A stretch of DNA of 64,000 bases from NCBI GenBank assembly GCA_965202805.1, contig OZ241869.1, forward strand, positions 1,728,001 to 1,792,000. The letters run 5' to 3'. Of this stretch, positions 24,155 through 33,999 are shown one piece after another (position 1 is the stretch's first letter; each line of letters opens with the position of its first letter). The stretch is from Longimicrobiales bacterium (GTDB lineage: Bacteria > Gemmatimonadota > Gemmatimonadetes > Longimicrobiales > Gaopeijiaceae). The notes under the pieces are model-generated. The model searched no databases. It saw nothing but the letters and a program-made list of their open reading frames with translations, and had not been told where the DNA came from. A program made the position numbers and the translations under genes.

Positions 24155-24898
24155 TCAGACCGCCTGCTCGCGCACGATGCGCCGCACCCCCTCCTCCAGC
24201 CGCGCCAGGTAATCGTCCAGATGCTCCGCCGCGATGGGGTTGCCGTGGATGGGCGCCACCCAGGACACCTCGCGCTCTTCGACCATCTCGCGCAGCACCC
24301 CCATGAGCACGGCCGGATCCGCGTAGCGAAGCCAGATCAGCGTGTCGCGGTGGAAGGTATGGATCTCTTCGCTCCGGAAGCCGTCCGGCAGCCGGCGCGA
24401 CGTCAGCCCGGTCTCGTCGTCCGCGTGGTGGTAACCGAAGCCGTCGGCGACGAAGAGCACGCGCGATGCCCGGTCGTAGATCCACGAGGTGTGGGAGCGG
24501 TCCGCGAGCGGCGGGTCGAGGAAGTCGAGCACCCTCCCGGCCACCTCCAGGCTCCCCCCGATCCGGCTGCGGCGGGCGTACGGAAGCCCCTGGATCTCCG
24601 GCTCGCCGGAGGAGGCCACGATCTCGAAATCGCCCCAGCGGCGCCGGAACGCCGGGATGTTGCCGGAGTGCGGATAGTCGGAGTGCGACAGCACCAGCGA
24701 ATGGATGCCCTCCCCGGCAGTGGCGCGCGAGATGCGGCGCACCAGGCTCTCGCGATGATAGAAAGAGCCCGAGTCGATGAGGATGTTCCTGTCCCGCGCG
24801 CGGATCAGAAACACGCTGACGTGGACGTTGCGCCCCCCGCCCAGCGAGTAGTTCTCCGCGATCCAGGACACGTCTCGCGTGAGCTCCACCCCGCTCAC
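24155..24898 (-). CDS. MBL-fold protein (FprA/ODP-like di-iron domain), paralog B
   Basis: ILIDSG, SHSDYPHSGN, LFVADGFG, APIHG; GTGA overlap with paralog A. Confidence 0.82.
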   Translation of the reverse strand: MSGVELTRDVSWIAENYSLGGGRNVHVSVFLIRARDRNILIDSGSFYHRESLVRRISRATAGEGIHSLVLSHSDYPHSGNIPAFRRRWGDFEIVASSGEPEIQGLPYARRSRIGGSLEVAGRVLDFLDPPLADRSHTSWIYDRASRVLFVADGFGYHHADDETGLTSRRLPDGFRSEEIHTFHRDTLIWLRYADPAVLMGVLREMVEEREVSWVAPIHGNPIAAEHLDDYLARLEEGVRRIVREQAV

Positions 24899-25698
24899 AG
24901 CACCCCCGTCCGCCCACCGGTCGCCACCCGCTCGACGACCTCCTTCATCATTTCGAAATAGCGCGGCACGTCGGCGCGAATCACGGGCCCGTGCGCGGAC
25001 GCGATCATCGCCGGACGATACCTCTCCGCCAGCAGATCGATCTCCGCCTGTGTGCGCGCCACATCCACGTACCGCATCCAGAACATGACCCGTCCGTGGA
25101 ACTCCGCGTAGCGGTCCACGTCCACGGGGGAGCGGAACTCATCCGCGAACAGAAGCCCTTCCCCATCCATCAGCGGCAGCCCCATCCAGTCGACGGGCAG
25201 GAGCATCCCCGAGGTTTCCTCCGTCATCCACATCGACATCGCCGCGTCCAGGAAGGCGGCGTCGTGGAAATGCAGCCGCAGCCCGCCCAGGTCGAGCGAG
25301 TCGCCCGGCCCTACCTTGTGGGCGTCTTCGAGATGATAGAGCTCGTGGGTGCGTCCGAAGCGGGGCGCCACCAGCGTCGCCCCGGGATGGCGCTCCAGGA
25401 TGCGGAAGGTGTTGCCCGCGTGGGGAACGTCCGGGTGCGAAAGCGCGAGATAGTCGAGGTCGCGGCCATCGAGCACCGTCTCCAGGTCCGCGAGGATCTG
25501 CTCGTCCGCGGCCGGCGACAGGGTGTCGAAGAGGAGCGTCCGCTCCCCGGCGAAGAGGAAGGCGTTCTGCGGAACGTGGATCTCTCGCCCGGGACGGTAC
25601 CAGTGGGCTCCGCGATCGACCAGGGACCTGGCGATTCCCGGCCGGTCCGGCCCGAACTCCTGAATCCAGTGGATCCCGGGATGGATTTCTCTGGGCAT
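24895..25698 (-). CDS. MBL-fold protein (FprA/ODP-like di-iron domain), paralog A
   Basis: MPREIHPGIHWI, QNAFLF, LLFDT, SHPDVPHAGN, ASAHG; start reassigned to ATG 25698. Confidence 0.82.
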   Translation of the reverse strand: MPREIHPGIHWIQEFGPDRPGIARSLVDRGAHWYRPGREIHVPQNAFLFAGERTLLFDTLSPAADEQILADLETVLDGRDLDYLALSHPDVPHAGNTFRILERHPGATLVAPRFGRTHELYHLEDAHKVGPGDSLDLGGLRLHFHDAAFLDAAMSMWMTEETSGMLLPVDWMGLPLMDGEGLLFADEFRSPVDVDRYAEFHGRVMFWMRYVDVARTQAEIDLLAERYRPAMIASAHGPVIRADVPRYFEMMKEVVERVATGGRTGVL

Positions 25699-25826
25699 GG
25701 CGCGCCTCGGGGGAGATGACGCCTCTCCGGCGAGAGGCACCCGCGAAGGTGTAATGCGGCGAGCACCAGCGCCAGTGGCGCGCCGGGGGATCGGCCGCGC
25801 GTTGGTCACCCTTCGGGGCAACCGCC

Positions 25827-27257
25827 TCAGTCCGCTCCCCGCACCCGGCCGAGCCCGACCCCGGCGCCCGCGGCCACCAGCACGAGCAGTGCGCCGAGAA
25901 CCGTGAGCGGAACACCCGCACGTCGAGCCACGTCGGCGCCCTCCTCGTCGGCGAGCTGGAACTTCGGCACGTCGGGAAGCGCGCTCGCGTCCATCTGCTC
26001 GCTGGCCAGGATCGCCGGCACGAAGAACTCCCGCCACTGTTCGGCGAACGCGCGCACCTGCGACTGGAAGGAGGCGAAACGCGCGTCTCCCGTCCCGGCC
26101 GCGTCGATGAGCACCTCCTGGGCCAGCAGCGCCGGCGACAGGAAGCGGTAGCGGCGCACCAGGGCGATCTGCTCGGCGCGGCGTGCATCGTGTTCCCCCG
26201 TCACCTCCTCCAGGTGGCGGTTCACGGCGTCCGTGGCGGCCCAGGCGAGCGCGCCCAGACCGGGCTCTTCGGCCACTACGCCGCCCGCCATTTCCGGATG
26301 GTCCTCCAGGTAGCGGGCGAGCAGTTCGCTGCGGCGGTTTACGGCGTCGTTCGAGGCCTCGCGCTGGGCGGTGACCATCTGCACGCGGGACGGCAGCGGG
26401 TGCAGCAGACCCGACGCGATGTTGATGGCGGCGGGGAGCACCACGACGAGCACCAGCCACGCGCCTACCAGGACCGTGGCGTTCCAGGCGGAGGACCGCC
26501 GCAGGCTGTTCACCCACGCCGCGAGCACGAACCAGAAGAGCGCGTAGGTGACCACCGTGCCGCACCACAGAAGCACCCGGCCGGGCGAGGCGAAGCCTCC
26601 CGTAACCAGAATGCCGGCCAGCGAGGCCGCCAGCACCATGCCCACGACCAGCAGCGCCCGGAAGGCCAGCTTCGCCGCCACGACGCTGCGCGCCGAGACG
26701 GGCTGCGAGAGCGTCAGGGCCAGCGTTCCCTGCTCGCGCTCCTCGGAGAGGACATTGAAGCTGAGCGCCAGAACCAGGAGCGGCAGCAGGTAGATCACCA
26801 CGAAGGCCAGGTCGAAGCGCCCGACCATCAGGTTGAGGGGGTTCTCCACCTCGCCGTTCTGGTGGAACGACGATTCGTTGGTGTAGATGTTGACGTCGTA
26901 GTAGTACGGCAGGAGATCGCTCTGACCGACCGCCAGAGCCGTCAGGGGACCCGGCTCCAGCACCGCGGTGTGGCTGCCGCGGGCCCCGCCCATCACGTTG
27001 GGCAGGCGCGGATCCGCAAAGCGCGACGCCGGCTCGGCGCCGTTTTCGATGTCGGCCAGCTCCTGTTCGATGGCGCGGACGCGCTCGACGTTGCCGGTCT
27101 GCACGGCCTCCACCGTGCGCTCCTGAAAGCGCATCCAGACGACGCCGTTGGCCAGCGCGTAGGCGAGCAGGACGGCGAAGAGCCCGAGCACGATGCGGAG
27201 CGCCGGATCGGCCATGAGCAGACGCCACTCGTTCCGGAGGACGGTGCGCGCGGCCAT
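25827..27257 (-). CDS. ABC-2 type permease, DUF3526 family
   Basis: LAVGQSDLLPYY, NPLNLMVGRFDLAFV, SEEREQGTL, FLSPA. Confidence 0.88.
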   Translation of the reverse strand: MAARTVLRNEWRLLMADPALRIVLGLFAVLLAYALANGVVWMRFQERTVEAVQTGNVERVRAIEQELADIENGAEPASRFADPRLPNVMGGARGSHTAVLEPGPLTALAVGQSDLLPYYYDVNIYTNESSFHQNGEVENPLNLMVGRFDLAFVVIYLLPLLVLALSFNVLSEEREQGTLALTLSQPVSARSVVAAKLAFRALLVVGMVLAASLAGILVTGGFASPGRVLLWCGTVVTYALFWFVLAAWVNSLRRSSAWNATVLVGAWLVLVVVLPAAINIASGLLHPLPSRVQMVTAQREASNDAVNRRSELLARYLEDHPEMAGGVVAEEPGLGALAWAATDAVNRHLEEVTGEHDARRAEQIALVRRYRFLSPALLAQEVLIDAAGTGDARFASFQSQVRAFAEQWREFFVPAILASEQMDASALPDVPKFQLADEEGADVARRAGVPLTVLGALLVLVAAGAGVGLGRVRGAD

Positions 27258-27258
27258 G

Positions 27259-28665
27259 CTACCCCACCTCCGCGCGTCGCACCCGCGCCGCGGCCGCCAG
27301 GATGGTCCCGACCAGCCATGTCCCCAGCACCAGGATCGACAGGACGCGGTTGCCCAGCACCCAGCCCAGTGACGGAGCGGCGTACTGAAGCGGCGGCGTC
27401 TCCTCCCAGAGTTCGGGGCCCGCCAGGTATACCTCGCCGGTGCGGGAGTTGTCGGCCAGATCGCCGTTCATCCGCCGCATCAGATCCCGGCGGTACCCCT
27501 CCGCCGCCGTTGCGAAGTGCCGGTGCTGTTCGACGTCCGTCCCGGCCAGTCCCATGGACAGGGTGCGCACCGCCAGCAGCGGCGCCAGCACCGCGAGCGT
27601 CTCGTGTACGGCGCCCTGGCGCTCGAAGGTGTCCCACAGCGCGCTGTAGTTGCGGTCGAAGATCCGGTTGCCGAACTCCTCGCTCTCCTGCAGGTAGACG
27701 CCCACCTCGTTGATCGGCAGATCCTCGACCCGCTCCACTCCGTGCTCCGCCAGCAGGCGCTCGGCCAGCGCGGCCCGGTCCGGGCGGGGAATGCCCTCGA
27801 CGCCGGAAGCCATCTCGCGTTCGACGTTGCGCGCGAACTCGATCGCCGACGGCGTCGGGTGCAGCCACTTCGACAGGTCCACCGCGACGCGCGGCGCCAC
27901 CAGCCCGTTGACCACCCACACGCCCAGCAGGATCACCAGCGCGGTGCGCGCCGAGCGGGCCCGGGCGGACACGGCCAGGGAGAGCGCCAGGAAGGCGGTG
28001 AAATAGGCCAGGTAGACACCGGCCAGGACCACACCCCGGGCCAGCGGGGATGCCGCCGGACCGGGACTCCCGACAACCAGGGCGGCCGCCCCCACCAGGG
28101 CCGCCGGCACCAGCAGCAGCGCCAGCGCCCCGGCGATGCCCAGCGCCTTGCCCAGAGCCAGCTCCCGCCGCCCGATTCCGGTGGCCAGCAGCTGGCGCAG
28201 CGTCCCTCGCTCCCGCTCCCCGGCGAGCGCGCCGAAGGTGAGCAGGATGATGAGCAGGGGCACGAGATGCTGCAGCACCTGCGCCGCCGTCAGGGCCCCG
28301 ATGCGCTGCGCCGCGGTCGCATCCTGGGCCGGGCGCAGAAGGAAGTCGTTCTGACGGTGGGCCTCGAGCCATACCGAGGTCCCGGTGTAGGGATCCACGC
28401 CCTCGTCCACAAAGGACAATGCCAGACGCGGCTTGAACGCGTAGATGCCGTAGTGGGCCGCCGAATGGGGATTCTTCTCGCCCTGCGACTCCCAGTGTTC
28501 GCGGGCGGTGGCCTGCGCGGCAGCGTGCTCCTGCTGCGCGCTTCGTGCCTGGACCCACCCGTGGCCCAGGGAGACCAGCAACAGCGCGCCGACCAGGATC
28601 GAGCACCAGCGAAAGCGCCCGTCCCGAACGACGTCGGTGAACTCCTTGCGTACTATGTGCTTCAT
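27259..28665 (-). CDS. ABC-2 type permease, DUF3526 family
   Basis: KNPHSAAHYG, LEAHRQN, GERERGTLR, LAGTD. Confidence 0.88.
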   Translation of the reverse strand: MKHIVRKEFTDVVRDGRFRWCSILVGALLLVSLGHGWVQARSAQQEHAAAQATAREHWESQGEKNPHSAAHYGIYAFKPRLALSFVDEGVDPYTGTSVWLEAHRQNDFLLRPAQDATAAQRIGALTAAQVLQHLVPLLIILLTFGALAGERERGTLRQLLATGIGRRELALGKALGIAGALALLLVPAALVGAAALVVGSPGPAASPLARGVVLAGVYLAYFTAFLALSLAVSARARSARTALVILLGVWVVNGLVAPRVAVDLSKWLHPTPSAIEFARNVEREMASGVEGIPRPDRAALAERLLAEHGVERVEDLPINEVGVYLQESEEFGNRIFDRNYSALWDTFERQGAVHETLAVLAPLLAVRTLSMGLAGTDVEQHRHFATAAEGYRRDLMRRMNGDLADNSRTGEVYLAGPELWEETPPLQYAAPSLGWVLGNRVLSILVLGTWLVGTILAAAARVRRAEVG

Positions 28666-28677
28666 CGTCGGTGTCTC

Positions 28678-29445
28678 CTAGTCGTGCATGTGCTTCAGAT
28701 AGATGCGCTCGAGATCCGCGTGGCCGATCTCCTCCGTGCTCATCTCCGTGACCAGGCGTCCGTAGCGCATGATGCCCACGCGCGTCCCGGTCTCCTTGGC
28801 GCGAAACAGATCGTGGGTCGCCATGAGCACCGCGACGCCGCGATCCTTGAGCCGTTCGATCAGCCCGGAAAACTCGTTGGAGGCCTGCGGGTCGAGCCCG
28901 GAGGTCGGCTCGTCGAGCAGCAGCGCGTCGGCCTTCTTGGCGATCGCGATGGCGATGCCGACCTTCTGGCGCATGCCCTTGGAGTAATCGGACACGCGCT
29001 GATGGACCGCGGCGCGCTCCAGTCCCGCCTCGACCAGGATGTCGGTGAGCCGCTCAGGGGTCAGGGAACCCCTTCCACCCAGGGCGGCGAAGTACTCCAG
29101 GTTCTCCAGGCCGCTCAGGTTGCGGTAGAGCATGACCTGCTCGGGGATGTACGCGATCCGCTGCTTCGTCTCGCGGTTGTGGGTGGACACGTCCAGACCG
29201 GCGATCAGCGCCTGGCCGGATGTGGGATCCACGAATCCGAGGAAGAGGTTGATGGTGGTGGTCTTGCCCGCCCCGTTGGGGCCCAGCAGGCAGTAGACGT
29301 CCCCGGGCGCTATGGCCAGGTCGAGGGAGTCGAGGGCTCGCGTGGCGCCATAGCTCTTGCTGAGCCCGCGGGCCTCCAGAAGGGGCGTGCGCCCATTCCC
29401 CAATTCGGCGGGGTGCCGAGACTCGGGCGTATGCATGTGTTCCAT
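28678..29445 (-). CDS. ABC transporter ATP-binding protein
   Basis: Walker A GPNGAGKTT, signature YSKGMRQK, LLLDEPTSGLD, H-loop; SD ggagag before ATG 29445. Confidence 0.93.
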   Translation of the reverse strand: MEHMHTPESRHPAELGNGRTPLLEARGLSKSYGATRALDSLDLAIAPGDVYCLLGPNGAGKTTTINLFLGFVDPTSGQALIAGLDVSTHNRETKQRIAYIPEQVMLYRNLSGLENLEYFAALGGRGSLTPERLTDILVEAGLERAAVHQRVSDYSKGMRQKVGIAIAIAKKADALLLDEPTSGLDPQASNEFSGLIERLKDRGVAVLMATHDLFRAKETGTRVGIMRYGRLVTEMSTEEIGHADLERIYLKHMHD

Positions 29446-29536
29446 CTCTCCGGTTGGGTGCGCCCACGCGGACGCAACCATCGACAGGGTTTCGCCGACG
29501 CGCGCGCCGGCCGAGGGGCTCTGCTACAGAGAGATG
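29443..29536 (-). promoter_or_regulatory. Predicted anti-SD/SD duplex (translational attenuator)
   Basis: mRNA CAUCUCUCUG (29536-29527) is complementary to CGGAGAGAUG (29452-29443): 9 Watson-Crick pairs + 1 G-U. Confidence 0.65.
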
Positions 29537-29841
29537 TGGCGAGGCGGGGCTCGGCTGCGTTGAGGGGCGAGATGGATGACCGCGGGAACGAACCGGCGCC
29601 CGGGAAGTGCGGGAATCCGCAGGAAAACCGGTCGCGCGACGCTCGGAGTGCCCGAGACGGTGGCCGATCCGGGACTATGGACGACCTGGCACACGGCACA
29701 GGCGTCCGGCGAGTCGGGTCCGTCTTCGTGTGTGTGTGAGCTCTCCGTCGAATAGACGAGGAGGAGGGAGAGGACGACGGCCATTGCGGTCGGCGCGCGC
29801 ACGCGCTCCCGCGATGCCGTCAGGTCGAACAGGTGCCCCAT
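29524..29841 (-). CDS. DUF2946-like leader peptide with HxH, CxxC and C-terminal RAPP motif (CutF/CruR-like)
   Basis: Hydrophobic segment MAVVLSLLLVY, HTHED, CAVC, ...RSRAPPRHISL*; start may be the internal MAVV. Confidence 0.8.
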   Translation of the reverse strand: MGHLFDLTASRERVRAPTAMAVVLSLLLVYSTESSHTHEDGPDSPDACAVCQVVHSPGSATVSGTPSVARPVFLRIPALPGRRFVPAVIHLAPQRSRAPPRHISL

Positions 29842-29943
29842 CGCTCTCGATAGAACTGGTGCGCCATCGCTCCTTCCTCCACCTCACGGACTTCCCACCG
29901 GCCCACTCGCCGCCCCTGGACGATCGGGGATGCAGCGAACGCT

Positions 29944-30080: not shown

Positions 30081-30629
30081 ATGAACGCTGCCGCCGCCAT
30101 CCTGCTCGCCGCTTCGGTTCTGCACGCCCACGGCGCGCCCCAGGAGCCCCTTTCCAGGGGTCCCTCGCACGACGGCTACACCGAGGCCGTCACCATGCGG
30201 CACGCGCACGAAGGGCCCCATGGCGAAGACCTCGTCCGCATCGAGCGGATGATCCGCTGCACCTGCGGCTGCACGCTTGACGCCCACACCTGCCAGTACC
30301 AGATGCAGTGCAGCGAGTCCCCCGTCTTCACCCGGCGCATTCTGGCGGCGCTCGAGGCGGGCGAGTCCGAGGAAGTGATTCTCGCCGGCTTCGTCGGCGA
30401 CTACGGCCAGAGCATCCTCGGCGCGCCTCCCAGGGAAGGCTTCAACTGGGTCGGCTACGTGATGCCCTGGGTCGCGTTGGCCTTCTCCGGCCTCATTGTC
30501 AGCTTCTTCCTGCGCAGGAACGTCGCCCGCGGGCGGGAGCGCGCGCCGGTCGTGGACTCGGACATCTCCGACACGGACTGGGATCGGCTCCGGAAGGAGA
30601 TGAAGGCGCTGGAGAAGGAAGACTGGTGA
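30081..30629 (+). CDS. ccmH: CcmH/CcmL-like cytochrome c biogenesis protein
   Basis: IRCTCGC...C, FVGDYGQSILGAPPREGFNWVGYVMP, C-terminal TM. Confidence 0.75.
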   Translation: MNAAAAILLAASVLHAHGAPQEPLSRGPSHDGYTEAVTMRHAHEGPHGEDLVRIERMIRCTCGCTLDAHTCQYQMQCSESPVFTRRILAALEAGESEEVILAGFVGDYGQSILGAPPREGFNWVGYVMPWVALAFSGLIVSFFLRRNVARGRERAPVVDSDISDTDWDRLRKEMKALEKEDW

Positions 30630-31076: not shown

Positions 31077-31733
31077 TTGAGCCGCTCGCAATGCTGTGGG
31101 CTCGAACGCCAGTTCGACGACGCGCACGCGCGCAGGAGCCTGCGCAGATTCCGCCGAAAGGGGCCGGCCAAGCCCACCCGCTGGCTGCTCGGGGCCATCG
31201 CGGAGGACGGTGTCGAGGGCCGCACCTTCATCGATGTCGGCGGGGGCATCGGAGCCGTCCAGCACGAGCTGATGGCGCGTGGCGCAGCCGGGGGAACCCA
31301 CTCGGACGCAGCTCCGGCGTTCCTGCGCGCGGCACGCTCCGAAGCCGAGGCGCGCGGCTATGCGGACCGCATCCGCTACGTGGACGGCGATTTCGTGGAA
31401 CGGGCGGGCGAACTCCCCGCGGCGGACCTGGTGACCCTGGACCGGGTGGTGTGCTGCTATCCCGACATGCCGGCCCTGCTGGGCGCGGCGGCACCCCTGG
31501 CGAAGCGGACGCTCGGGCTGGTGATGCCGCATGGCGGACCGCTGGCGCGCTTCGGCGTCGGGCTGGTCAACTTCATCCAGCGCCTCAGGCGGCATCCGTT
31601 CCGGGTCTTCGCGCATGAGCCTTCCGCGGTGGAGGCGGTGGTGGAGCGCCATGGGCTCGCGAAGCGATTCGAGCGCGCCGGCGTGGTATGGCGGGTGTTG
31701 GTCTTCACCAGGCCAGAGGCCGGCCGGATCTGA
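31077..31733 (+). CDS. Class I SAM-dependent methyltransferase
   Basis: [22 protein letters not shown]. Confidence 0.82.
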
Positions 31734-33999
31734 GCTTCAGACGAAGGCTGTTCAGCACCACGCTGACGCTCGAGAACGCCATCGCCAGGGCGGCCAGAAC
31801 CGGGTGCAGCAGGCTGCTGGCGGCGGCCACCGGAATGAGCGCCACATTGTATCCGAAGGCCCAGAAGAGATTCTGGCGAATCGTCCGCATGGTGGCGCGC
31901 GAAAGCTGGATGGCGTCGTTCACGCCGGCCAGATCATCCCGCATCAGGGTGATGTCGGCGCTCTCGATGGCCACGTCGGTGCCCGTCCCTATGGCGATGC
32001 CGACATCCGCTCGCGCCAGCGCGGGCGCATCGTTGGTGCCGTCGCCCACCATGGCGACCGGTTCGCCCATCTCCTGAAGCGCGCTCACCACTTCGGCCTT
32101 CTCGCGCGGCGGCACACCGGCCCGCACTTCCTGGATGCCGGCCTCGTCGGCTATGGCGGCGGCGGTGGCGGCGTTGTCCCCGGTGACCATGACCACGCGC
32201 ATTTGCGTCCGCAGGTTCTCGATCGCGTCGCGGGCACCCGGCTTGAGTTCGTCCGCGATGGCGATCAGGCCGATCGCGCGCCCGTCGACCGCTACCCAGA
32301 CCACGGTATGCGCCTGCGCCTCCAGCCGCTCCGCCTCCGCCGCGAGACCGTACCCGTGACTGCCATGGACGCCCACGAACTGCTTCTTCCCCACCACCAC
32401 CCGGTGGTAGTCCACGGTGCCGATCACGCCGTATCCGGGAACGGCCTCGAAGTCTCGGGGAGGCTCCAGTGCGATCCCGCGCGCCTCCGCCTCCCGAACC
32501 ACCGCGCGCGCCAGGGGATGCTCGCTGCCCCACTCGGCGGAGCCCGCCATCCGGAGGATCCTGCGCGGGTCGTTTCCGGCCACCGCGCGCACGGACGGCT
32601 CGCCCCTGGTGATCGTGCCGGTCTTGTCGAGCACCACCACCCGCAGCTGCCGGGCGAGTTCGAGCGCCTCGCTGTTCCTGAAGAGAATGCCCTTCCCCGC
32701 CCCCACCCCCATCCCGACCATGACGGCCGTGGGGGTCGCCAGCCCCAGCGCGCACGGGCAGGCGATCACCAGCACCGCCACCATCCGGATCAGCGCGGCC
32801 GGAAAGCCGGCGCCCGCCGCCATCCACCACACCAGGAAGGTCCCGGCCGCGATCGCGATCACGATCGGCACGAAGACCCCCGCCACCCGGTCGGCCAGGC
32901 GCTGCACGGGCGCCTTGCTGCCCTGCGCCTCGCGGACCAGGCGCACGATCCCCGCCAGGGCGGTGTCGGCGCCCACGCGGGTCGCGCCCACCTGCAGTAG
33001 GCCCTCGTGGTTGAGGGTGCCGCCGATCACCTTCGCGCCGGGCTTCTTGTCCACCGGGAGGCTCTCGCCGGTGAAGGTGCTCTCATCCACCGAGGACCGT
33101 CCGTCGAGCACGATGCCATCCACAGGAATCCGCTCGCCGGGCCGCACCAGCACGACCTGACCCACCTGCACCTGATCGAGCGGCACCTCCCGTTCCTCCT
33201 CGCCCGCGAGAAGGGTCGCGGTGCGCGGGCGGAGCGCCATCATCCGGCGAATGGCGTCGCCGGTCTCGCCCCTGGCCCGGACCTCCAGCCACTTGCCCAG
33301 CTTGATGAGGGTGATGATCGCCGCGGCCGTCTCGAAGTAGACGTGCTCGCCCAGCGTGGTGACCCCGACGGTGAGCGCGACCGTCACGGCCACGCTGTAG
33401 AAGAACGCGGCGGAGGACCCCAGCGCCACCAGCACGTCCATGTTGGCGCCGCGATTGCGAAGCGCCTTGAAGGACCCCGTGTAGTAGCTCCAGCCGACGT
33501 AGAACTGGACCGGAGTCGCAAGGGTGAGGAAGGCCCAGTTCACCCATGGGGCGTGCGCCCACGCGCCCACCAGCCCGAAGTCGCGCGCCATGCTGACCAG
33601 GAAGAGGGGAAGGGTGAACGCCAGCCCGACACGGAACGCGCGGCCGTGCCGGTCGATTTCCCGGGCGCGGGCCGCCGCTTCGGCGTCCTCCGCCTTTGCC
33701 CCGCTACCCCTGTCCTCCTCCTGCACCGCTTCGGTGACCACCCCGTACCCGGCCTCCTCGATGACGCGGGTCACCTCGGCGGGGGTCACTTCGTCGGGCA
33801 GGTACTGGATGGTTGCGCGCCCGGAGGCGAAGTTCACGTCCGCGCTCACCACTCCGGCGACGCCCGCGCGCAGGACGTTCTCTATGGTGGCCGCGCATCC
33901 CATGCACGTCATCCCGGTGACGGGAAGCTCGAGCCGGGCGGGCCCGGCGCCGTCGCCGGAGGGGCCGGAGGGTGGTGCGGTTCGGGTTGCAACCGACAA
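31705..33999 (-). CDS. copA: Cu(I)-translocating P1B-type ATPase
   Basis: GMTCMGC HMA domain, TGES, CPC, DKTGT, SEHP, GDGTND, YN and MAFSS signatures. Confidence 0.92.

Follow-up and report, generated by a model that had tools for sequence, protein, structure and literature searches.

The 64,000-nt stretch of Longimicrobiales DNA analysed here (the window) carries on its minus strand a short leader ORF that is followed by a gene for an ABC-2 type ATPase and two genes for ABC-2 permeases with DUF3526 (Table 1). The nearest named relatives of the ATPase belong mostly to Gemmatimonadota, order Longimicrobiales. Two genes with the ODP/metallo-beta-lactamase fold (24155-25710, minus strand) are located 3' of the permeases and may be co-transcribed. 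Within 4.5 kb of the leader there are also a heavy-metal P1B-type ATPase with an HMA domain (31705-33999, minus strand) and a CcmH-like gene (30081-30629, plus strand). Searches of the locus for a sigma-70 promoter and an intrinsic terminator gave no match, and the Rfam covariance models returned no family match, the one chance hit scoring 19 bits against a cut-off of 83.

Table 1. Features of the leader, ATPase and permease locus, in positions of the window.
Feature	Position	Strand	Basis or remark
Leader ORF, 105 aa, DUF2946/CutF/CruR-like	29524..29841	-	Pfam match below cut-off, motifs
ABC-2 type ATPase, 252 aa, start at 29436	28678..29436	-	Profile match and conserved start
ABC-2 permease with DUF3526	27259..28665	-	Weak similarity to NosY (7o0y_D, E 3.8e-5)
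Second ABC-2 permease with DUF3526	25827..27257	-	Profile match
CxxC (CAVC), putative metal site	29689..29700	-	C48-C51
RAPP arrest motif (predicted)	29542..29553	-	First Pro (29547-29545) expected in the P site, by analogy
26-nt tandem duplication of the leader start	29820..29867	-	Not in the relatives compared; in contigs of runs X4 and X5
Upstream anti-SD copy UCCAUCUC, codons I-H-L	29569..29576	-	Complementary to 29448-29441; -29 to -22 from the P site
Main anti-SD arm CAUCUCUCUG (+12 to +21), last leader codons	29527..29536	-	Pairing, folding, conservation
Conserved inner hairpin A, 7 bp in the window	29494..29511	-	Pairing in 93.3% of cells; both sides changed in 3 pairs
Conserved inner hairpin B (UGCGUC/GGCGCA)	29459..29476	-	Pairing in 98.9% of cells; both sides changed in 2 pairs
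SD arm of the helix CGGAGAGAUGGA; contained AUG not the start codon	29441..29452	-	Pairing, frame, conservation

The leader peptide starts with a basic-hydrophobic N-terminus, which is followed by an ExxHxH motif, a CxxC motif, a RAPP motif 45 residues further on, five more residues and the stop codon. Alignment of 11 leaders revealed that E33, H36, H38, C48 and C51 are invariant in all of them. The basic region precedes a 13-residue hydrophobic stretch (mean hydropathy 2.35), and, as judged from its sequence, the nascent chain is probably exported or membrane-targeted. The leader matched PF11162 (DUF2946) with 17.8 bits (E 0.0058), which is below the curated cut-off of 23.7, and 10 of the 11 aligned leaders matched this family, the best with E 7.7e-5. 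The leader is therefore classed as DUF2946-like and not as a DUF2946 member. It shares with CutF-like proteins the small size (105 aa, below the limit of 150), a PP within the last 15 residues (positions 99-100) and a same-strand gene less than 1000 nt away (87 nt on). The upstream neighbour is divergent (30081, plus strand) and the spacer between leader and ATPase is 87 nt, which places the leader, like CruR, as a first gene with a long spacer. The distance from CxxC to RAPP is 45 residues in the window and in all 48 orthologous loci described below, in agreement with the approximately 45 residues of the CruR type.

A six-frame motif scan of the genome gave six matches, one of which was a credible leader. 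The second PF11162 match of the genome (L096) was considered as a leader and rejected as spurious. Elsewhere in this genome, two Rho-like genes (G000:C1:2283321-2284556 and 282933-284039) score one above and one below the TIGR00767 cut-off, and there is one Smr-domain protein in an 869-aa frame, which is MutS2-like by size.

An earlier note on this DNA had described an anti-SD segment close behind the RAPP codons, and both of its statements about this pairing were borne out. The segment CAUCUCUCUG (29536-29527) starts 5 nt past the last RAPP Pro codon and pairs with CGGAGAGAUG (29452-29443) over 10 bp, of which nine are Watson-Crick pairs and one is a G-U pair. Folding of the minus strand, which the note had proposed as a check, gave a mixed answer: the mean probability of the helix was 0.97 in the fold of 29400-29560 and fell to 0.04, 0.00 and 0.59 in three longer folds, because the upstream copy of the arm (29576-29569) takes the same partner. 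The stability of the fold of the whole region was no better than that of shuffled sequences (z = -0.29), and the long interior arm of the single-sequence MFE was discarded as not being the conserved fold. Among 400 genes taken as background at the same distance from the start, 1% had an uninterrupted helix of at least 10 bp and 5% one of at least 8 bp, and 9% matched the duplex energy of the main helix. As a single case the helix is only moderately unusual, and the claim rests on conservation.

According to the earlier note, the helix hides the SD together with the start codon of the ATPase. The SD part of this statement stood, whereas the AUG within the helix (29445-29443) is not the conserved start, being in frame in 12 of the 48 orthologous loci, out of frame in 33 and absent from 3. 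The conserved start is 29436, and the best SD duplex, calculated with the genome's own 16S end (-7.0 kcal/mol), ends 7 nt before it. Position 29481, which had been named as an alternative start, is not conserved, and AUG 29445 and AUG 29481 were both ruled out as ATPase starts by frame and conservation. Comparison of the sequences thus indicates that the helix covers the SD and not the start codon. The second hairpin of the note was retained in its inner UGCGUC/GGCGCA core (hairpin B), which is conserved, while its outer GGUUG/CAACC stem found no support: its probability was at most 0.20 in every fold, and its bases are shared with the inner stem and the main helix. Hairpin A is absent from the earlier note. 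In the resulting model, the leader RNA would form a multibranch structure closed by the anti-SD/SD helix; this predicted, covarying stem would sequester the downstream SD with its 5' arm beside the stall site, as in systems of the CutF/SecM type.

Conservation was assessed at 224 ATPase loci. A CxxC-RAPP leader within 450 nt was present at 83 of them (69 unique) and missing at the other 141. The orthologous set comprises 48 loci with at least five residues after RAPP, from which L121 (distant) and L190 (no anchor) were left out; these loci are close kin from two genera. The main helix reaches at least 8 bp in 44 of the 48 loci and at least 6 bp in all of them, and the 11 loci of a third genus all have it, with energies of -17.4 to -18.4 kcal/mol. 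Counted from the first base of the P-site Pro codon, the 5' arm starts between +7 and +13 (median +11) in 48 of 48 loci. The R-A-P-P codons are likewise present in all 48, a set which was chosen on a RAPP-like motif, and synonymous change is free there. Among the loci examined, L017, L018 and L178 are near-identical copies in bins labelled Binatia, Gammaproteobacteria and another genus, which points to misbinning or transfer.

Covariation in homologs, another check proposed in the earlier note, came out in favour of the structure. In an alignment of 47 leaders (L022 was left out because of a long insertion), 90.1% of cells were paired in the three-helix structure, and 8 of its pairs had changed on both sides. 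None of 500 shuffles reached its covariation score and slid controls were 31-52% paired, with the qualification that kinship inflates such tests. Inner hairpins A and B account for most of the covariation. Of the core pairs in the main helix, three are invariant and one shows two-sided change (in L023 alone); A-U has changed to G-U six times in this helix. Compensated versions of the main helix were found in L023 (CGAUCUCUCA/UGAGAGAUCG), L022 (CUCCAU/AUGGAG) and L212 (CCCAUCUC/GAGAUGGG). A stronger sign of selection than this covariation is, at the sequence level, the choice of the codon UCU for Ser: it is used in 46 of 48 loci, against 2.3% in the genome, and its third position requires 2 parsimony changes, compared with 8-14 at nine other A/T-majority third positions of the leader. 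The main arm also beats synonymous recoding (p<0.05) in 39 of 48 loci. On this comparative evidence, the anti-SD/SD helix is real, conserved and under selection.

The start of the leader carries a 26-nt tandem duplication in the window. It was found gap-free in contigs of two further studies (X4 and X5; X2 was set aside as a possible source) and is therefore no assembly error. As a consequence of the duplication, the strong SD now serves an out-of-frame ORF of 15 codons that overlaps the leader start at 29841, and the leader frame is intact with a weaker SD of its own. The duplication may lower leader translation in this strain. These changes, together with a fold that is not unusually stable, would suit a helix that is a constitutive dampener, setting a low ATPase level without any signal, or a relic in front of a leader that is barely translated since the duplication. 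We consider this explanation highly improbable, as the leader has kept its frame and an SD, and CxxC, RAPP, their spacing and the register of the helix are all kept in 48 loci.

Related leaders were found before genes of another kind. A paralogous leader with the same inner hairpins (L260-L272) precedes a TonB-dependent receptor in several genomes; the genome of the window is without it. In all nine paralogs analysed, GUCUC pairs with GAGAC, so that G-C replaces A-U at the corresponding position. The paralog helices are short and, taken alone, not longer than those of shuffles (p 0.13-0.48). In L275 (496-7310), a leader, a TonB receptor, two DUF3526 permeases, a second leader and an ATPase lie in a row, and that genome has four leaders. 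In 28 other leader entries, with noisy automatic start calls (8 without a start), no helix longer than in shuffles was detected. Distant leaders before the same ATPase family (n = 19, largely Vicinamibacterales) are mostly without such a switch; in the distant leaders L121 and L224, which are of unrelated sequence, a helix also begins at +11. A metagenome scan yielded 3 leaders among 80 loci. As far as the sequences tell, the switch is no general feature of the ATPase family.

The RAPPA-stop leaders of the Vicinamibacterales type (L030-L032, L034, L037-L040 and L098) have a very strong GGAGG-rich run approximately 40-45 nt before the likely ATPase start. A conserved GC hairpin that follows would loop the gap out; just 5' there is a pyrimidine run. 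These leaders possibly represent a different, structure-bridged SD design. In L031, L035, L037 and L039, a second CxxC-RGPP/RAPP leader is located on the same strand 0.8-3.3 kb farther upstream of the ATPase.

For RAPP peptides, CruR included, stalling is reported to occur when the first Pro occupies the P site (PMC10951233, PMC12992588), and the mRNA channel is reported to extend 11 nt 3' of +1 (PMC7282821). The earlier note had assumed that the stalled ribosome masks the anti-SD segment. A mask that reaches +15 did open the helix in our folding, whereas in the window the first base of the arm is +12 (+7 to +13 in the relatives, +5 in SecM), at the mouth of the 11-nt channel, and the arm is not simply covered. 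The stalled ribosome would therefore meet the end of the helix without burying it, and opening would depend on fraying at the channel mouth. The predicted probability of the helix in the window was 0.99, 0.68 and 0.02-0.04 with masks to +11, +13 and +15, respectively. Over the 48 loci, the mean cost of opening the RBS was 13.6 kcal/mol with the mask at +9 and decreased to 8.6 (+13), 7.3 (+15) and 6.5 (+17); once opened, the RBS still costs 6-7 kcal/mol in these folds. In the paralogs, masking lowers the opening cost less, from 16.0 to 12.6 kcal/mol.

The start at +12 also bears on the opposite polarity, in which release = ON. Here the helix would abut the entry channel unmelted and might strengthen the arrest, and the SD would open when released ribosomes terminate behind the arm. 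Stem-loops 11-12 nt from the P-site codon are described to inhibit A-site binding and to pause ribosomes (PMC7282821), the stop codon (29526) directly follows the arm, and a terminating ribosome fully covers the arm, with a cost of 5.3 kcal/mol if the upstream RNA is masked. However, in 23 of the 48 relatives the first pair of the helix lies within the channel, at +10 or earlier, the upstream anti-SD copy would close the SD during termination, and arrest-defective mutants are reported to lose expression in the SD-hairpin systems that were tested (PMC10987492, PMC9973294). We therefore judge release = ON to be distinctly unlikely. According to the modelling, stall = ON is most likely the polarity, and the geometry leaves room for the reverse.

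Taken together, we favour with moderate confidence a reading in which the conserved, predicted mRNA structure locks the RBS of the ABC/DUF3526 operon and is loosened by the RAPP-stalled ribosome, a prolonged stall being ON and release allowing the lock to re-form. The basis for this is given by the sequences, the reading frames, their conservation and covariation and the fixed register to RAPP. In analogy to CruR, ApdA/ApdP and CutF, the nascent leader would arrest on RAPP once the first Pro has reached the P site, and binding of a metal to ExxHxH/CxxC of the probably exported chain would change the arrest. The parked ribosome would destabilise the closing helix, with the SD opening, according to folding, once +13 to +15 are held, and a 30S subunit would then load at 29436. 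As to its kind, the mechanism in the earlier note is probably correct; it names the wrong start codon and overstates how far the ribosome covers the arm.

Concerning the signal, we lean slightly towards the polarity of CruR, in which scarcity of the metal would keep the stall (ON) and the metal would release it (OFF). What favours scarcity = ON is the frequent presence of TonB receptors beside these transporters, along with one occurrence each of ZIP and CobW genes. A scan of 42 neighbouring proteins, chosen from 81, revealed 8 TonB-dependent receptors with a plug domain, and ZIP, cation-efflux and CobW proteins at single loci. By their annotation, the neighbour genes mildly favour a role in uptake.

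The octamer of the main arm is repeated in a different reading frame 38-40 nt upstream, and this second anti-SD is located 5' of the stalled ribosome. It suggests a variant of stall = ON in which the SD would be free only when a queued second ribosome also covers the upstream arm, which would otherwise capture the SD during transit, termination or a brief stall. We regard this variant as fairly unlikely. In most relatives the copy ends about 28 nt before the main arm, and its mean duplex energy is -15.9 kcal/mol compared with -16.9 kcal/mol for the main arm. A scan of 50 offsets between leader and RBS revealed only two peaks, at +12 and at -30/-24 from the Arg codon. The copy pairs over at least 8 bp in 34 of 48 loci, and in 43 of 59 across three genera, and beats composition shuffles in 34 of 48. 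Its codons are in line with such pairing: where the partner has the AUG, the His codon is CAU in 38 of 42 loci (21% in the genome), it is CAC in 9 of 9 paralogs whose RBS partner is without AUG, and Leu is encoded by CUC or CUU in 42 of 42, never by CUG. Stacked ribosomes are reported to be approximately 25 nt apart, with the 5' edge approximately 12 nt before the A site (bioRxiv 2021.08.16.456513), and a queued ribosome would therefore cover the upstream copy. In folding that takes no account of ribosome sterics, the mean cost decreased only from 14.5 to 13.1 kcal/mol with a lone stalled ribosome around which the upstream copy can pair, a point against opening by a lone ribosome, and to 8.4 kcal/mol with a queued one; the corresponding values in the window were 11.6 (lone) and 7.4 kcal/mol (queued). 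With a terminating ribosome, the probability of the upstream helix was 0.99 in the window.

Analysis of selection on the upstream copy spoke against this variant. On the tree, the copy requires approximately 12 gains or losses, and their clustering is not clearly above that of shuffles, of which 40-47 in 500 had counts as low. At the informative third position there are 8 changes, at the low end of the background of 8-14, and the octamer is outside the 20 most conserved by parsimony. A majority-based measure of conservation had ranked the copy high, which tree parsimony did not, and the latter was followed. Synonymous recoding is beaten (p<0.05) in just 20 of 48 loci, compared with 39 of 48 for the main arm. 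No two-sided compensation was seen: where the SD arm changed (L023, L015 and L179), the upstream copy did not follow. In the paralogs the copy pairs over 5-6 bp only. The same calculation on secM gave a similar upstream site (-15.2 kcal/mol), with erratic lone and queued costs (12.4 and 14.4 versus 9.9), and the pairing around the ribosome was modelled without steric constraints. Finally, a CU-rich tract at this place is also a trait of CruR, where it is read as a rut site (PMC9426467). As far as can be judged from these sequences, selection on the upstream copy is weak. It is likewise fairly improbable that the leader counts ribosome collisions, in which case metal-controlled arrest would become a thresholded switch that filters out transit, termination and short pauses. 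Listings of the literature gave no attenuator gated by a queue in this manner; if the second anti-SD acts as such a gate, collisions between ribosomes, known to date as a signal for rescue, would serve as an input to regulation too.

The C-rich sequence around RAPP (36 C versus 16 G from -30 to +45) is consistent with transcription attenuation of the CruR type as the main control, in which this stretch would be a Rho loading site that is masked by the stalled ribosome. The helix would then merely lower ATPase translation and aid uncoupling, which is compatible with a lock that is opened by the stall. The genome has Rho, the locus has no intrinsic terminator-like site, and RAPP with its 45-residue spacing matches CruR, for which Rho control was shown (PMC9426467). 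A rut site, however, calls for C-richness, and a precise register and covariation with the SD are not required of it; in addition, the C-rich tract is predicted to be paired in the free mRNA, and the spacer of 87 nt is structured. We consider Rho as the main control unlikely and retain the lock opened by the stalled ribosome as the preferred reading.

The class of mechanism, a translational switch of the CutF/SecM type, is already known, so that the helix as such comes as no surprise. Control of the SecM type through RAPP-like peptides is described as general (PMC10987492, PMC12992588), and stall = ON was demonstrated for SecM, CutF and uDF_RQH (PMC10987492, PMC9973294, bioRxiv 2025.02.05.636593). 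CutF is a closer precedent than SecM. In Rhodobacter capsulatus, stalling on CutF is reported to melt the stem-loop that covers the SD of cutO, and mutants in the anti-SD escape this control (PMC9973294; bioRxiv 2025.02.05.636593). CutF has in common with the leader described here that it is short and DUF2946-like, with a Cys metal motif, a C-terminal Pro-rich arrest motif and an anti-SD/SD stem over the next RBS. It differs in its CxxxC and PPP motifs, its dependence on EF-P, its induction by copper and its target, a multicopper oxidase. The present leader has instead CxxC and RAPP, an ABC/DUF3526 target, a multibranch leader RNA, the arm within the last leader codons and possibly a second anti-SD.

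CruR, which controls bfrG in Bordetella pertussis, resembles the leader in the CxxC and RAPP motifs 45 residues apart, RAPP near the C-terminus, the C-rich tract and stall = ON (PMC9426467; arrest, PMC12992588), and the paralogous leaders found here also precede TonB receptors. Unlike the leader of the window, which scores below the PF11162 cut-off and precedes its target by 87 nt, CruR acts via Rho-dependent termination with a spacer of 162 nt, and the parts of its description that were consulted report no SD helix (PMC9426467). SecM-secA of E. coli, ApdA, ApdP and uDF_RQH share the RAPP/RAGP arrest chemistry and the pairing of an anti-SD arm in the last codons with the downstream SD; these leaders are described as monitoring Sec/YidC and are without a metal motif (PMC10987492, PMC10951233). 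The arm of E. coli secM, determined by the same calculation, extends from +5 to +15, compared with +12 to +21 here, approximately two codons further 3'.

ABC/DUF3526 targets and Gemmatimonadota were not encountered in the main texts and supplements searched, and File S1 of PMC9973294 and Fig. 4 or the Appendix of PMC12992588 may list ABC neighbours. What the locus adds to the known systems is an example from Gemmatimonadota relatives that is backed by covariation, a likely connection of ABC/DUF3526 transporters to a metal and a second anti-SD copy where a queued ribosome would sit. In addition, the approximately 70 leaders form a compact natural series for asking at what distance 3' of the P site a helix can still be opened by a stalled ribosome, with the arm at +12 here and at +5 in SecM.
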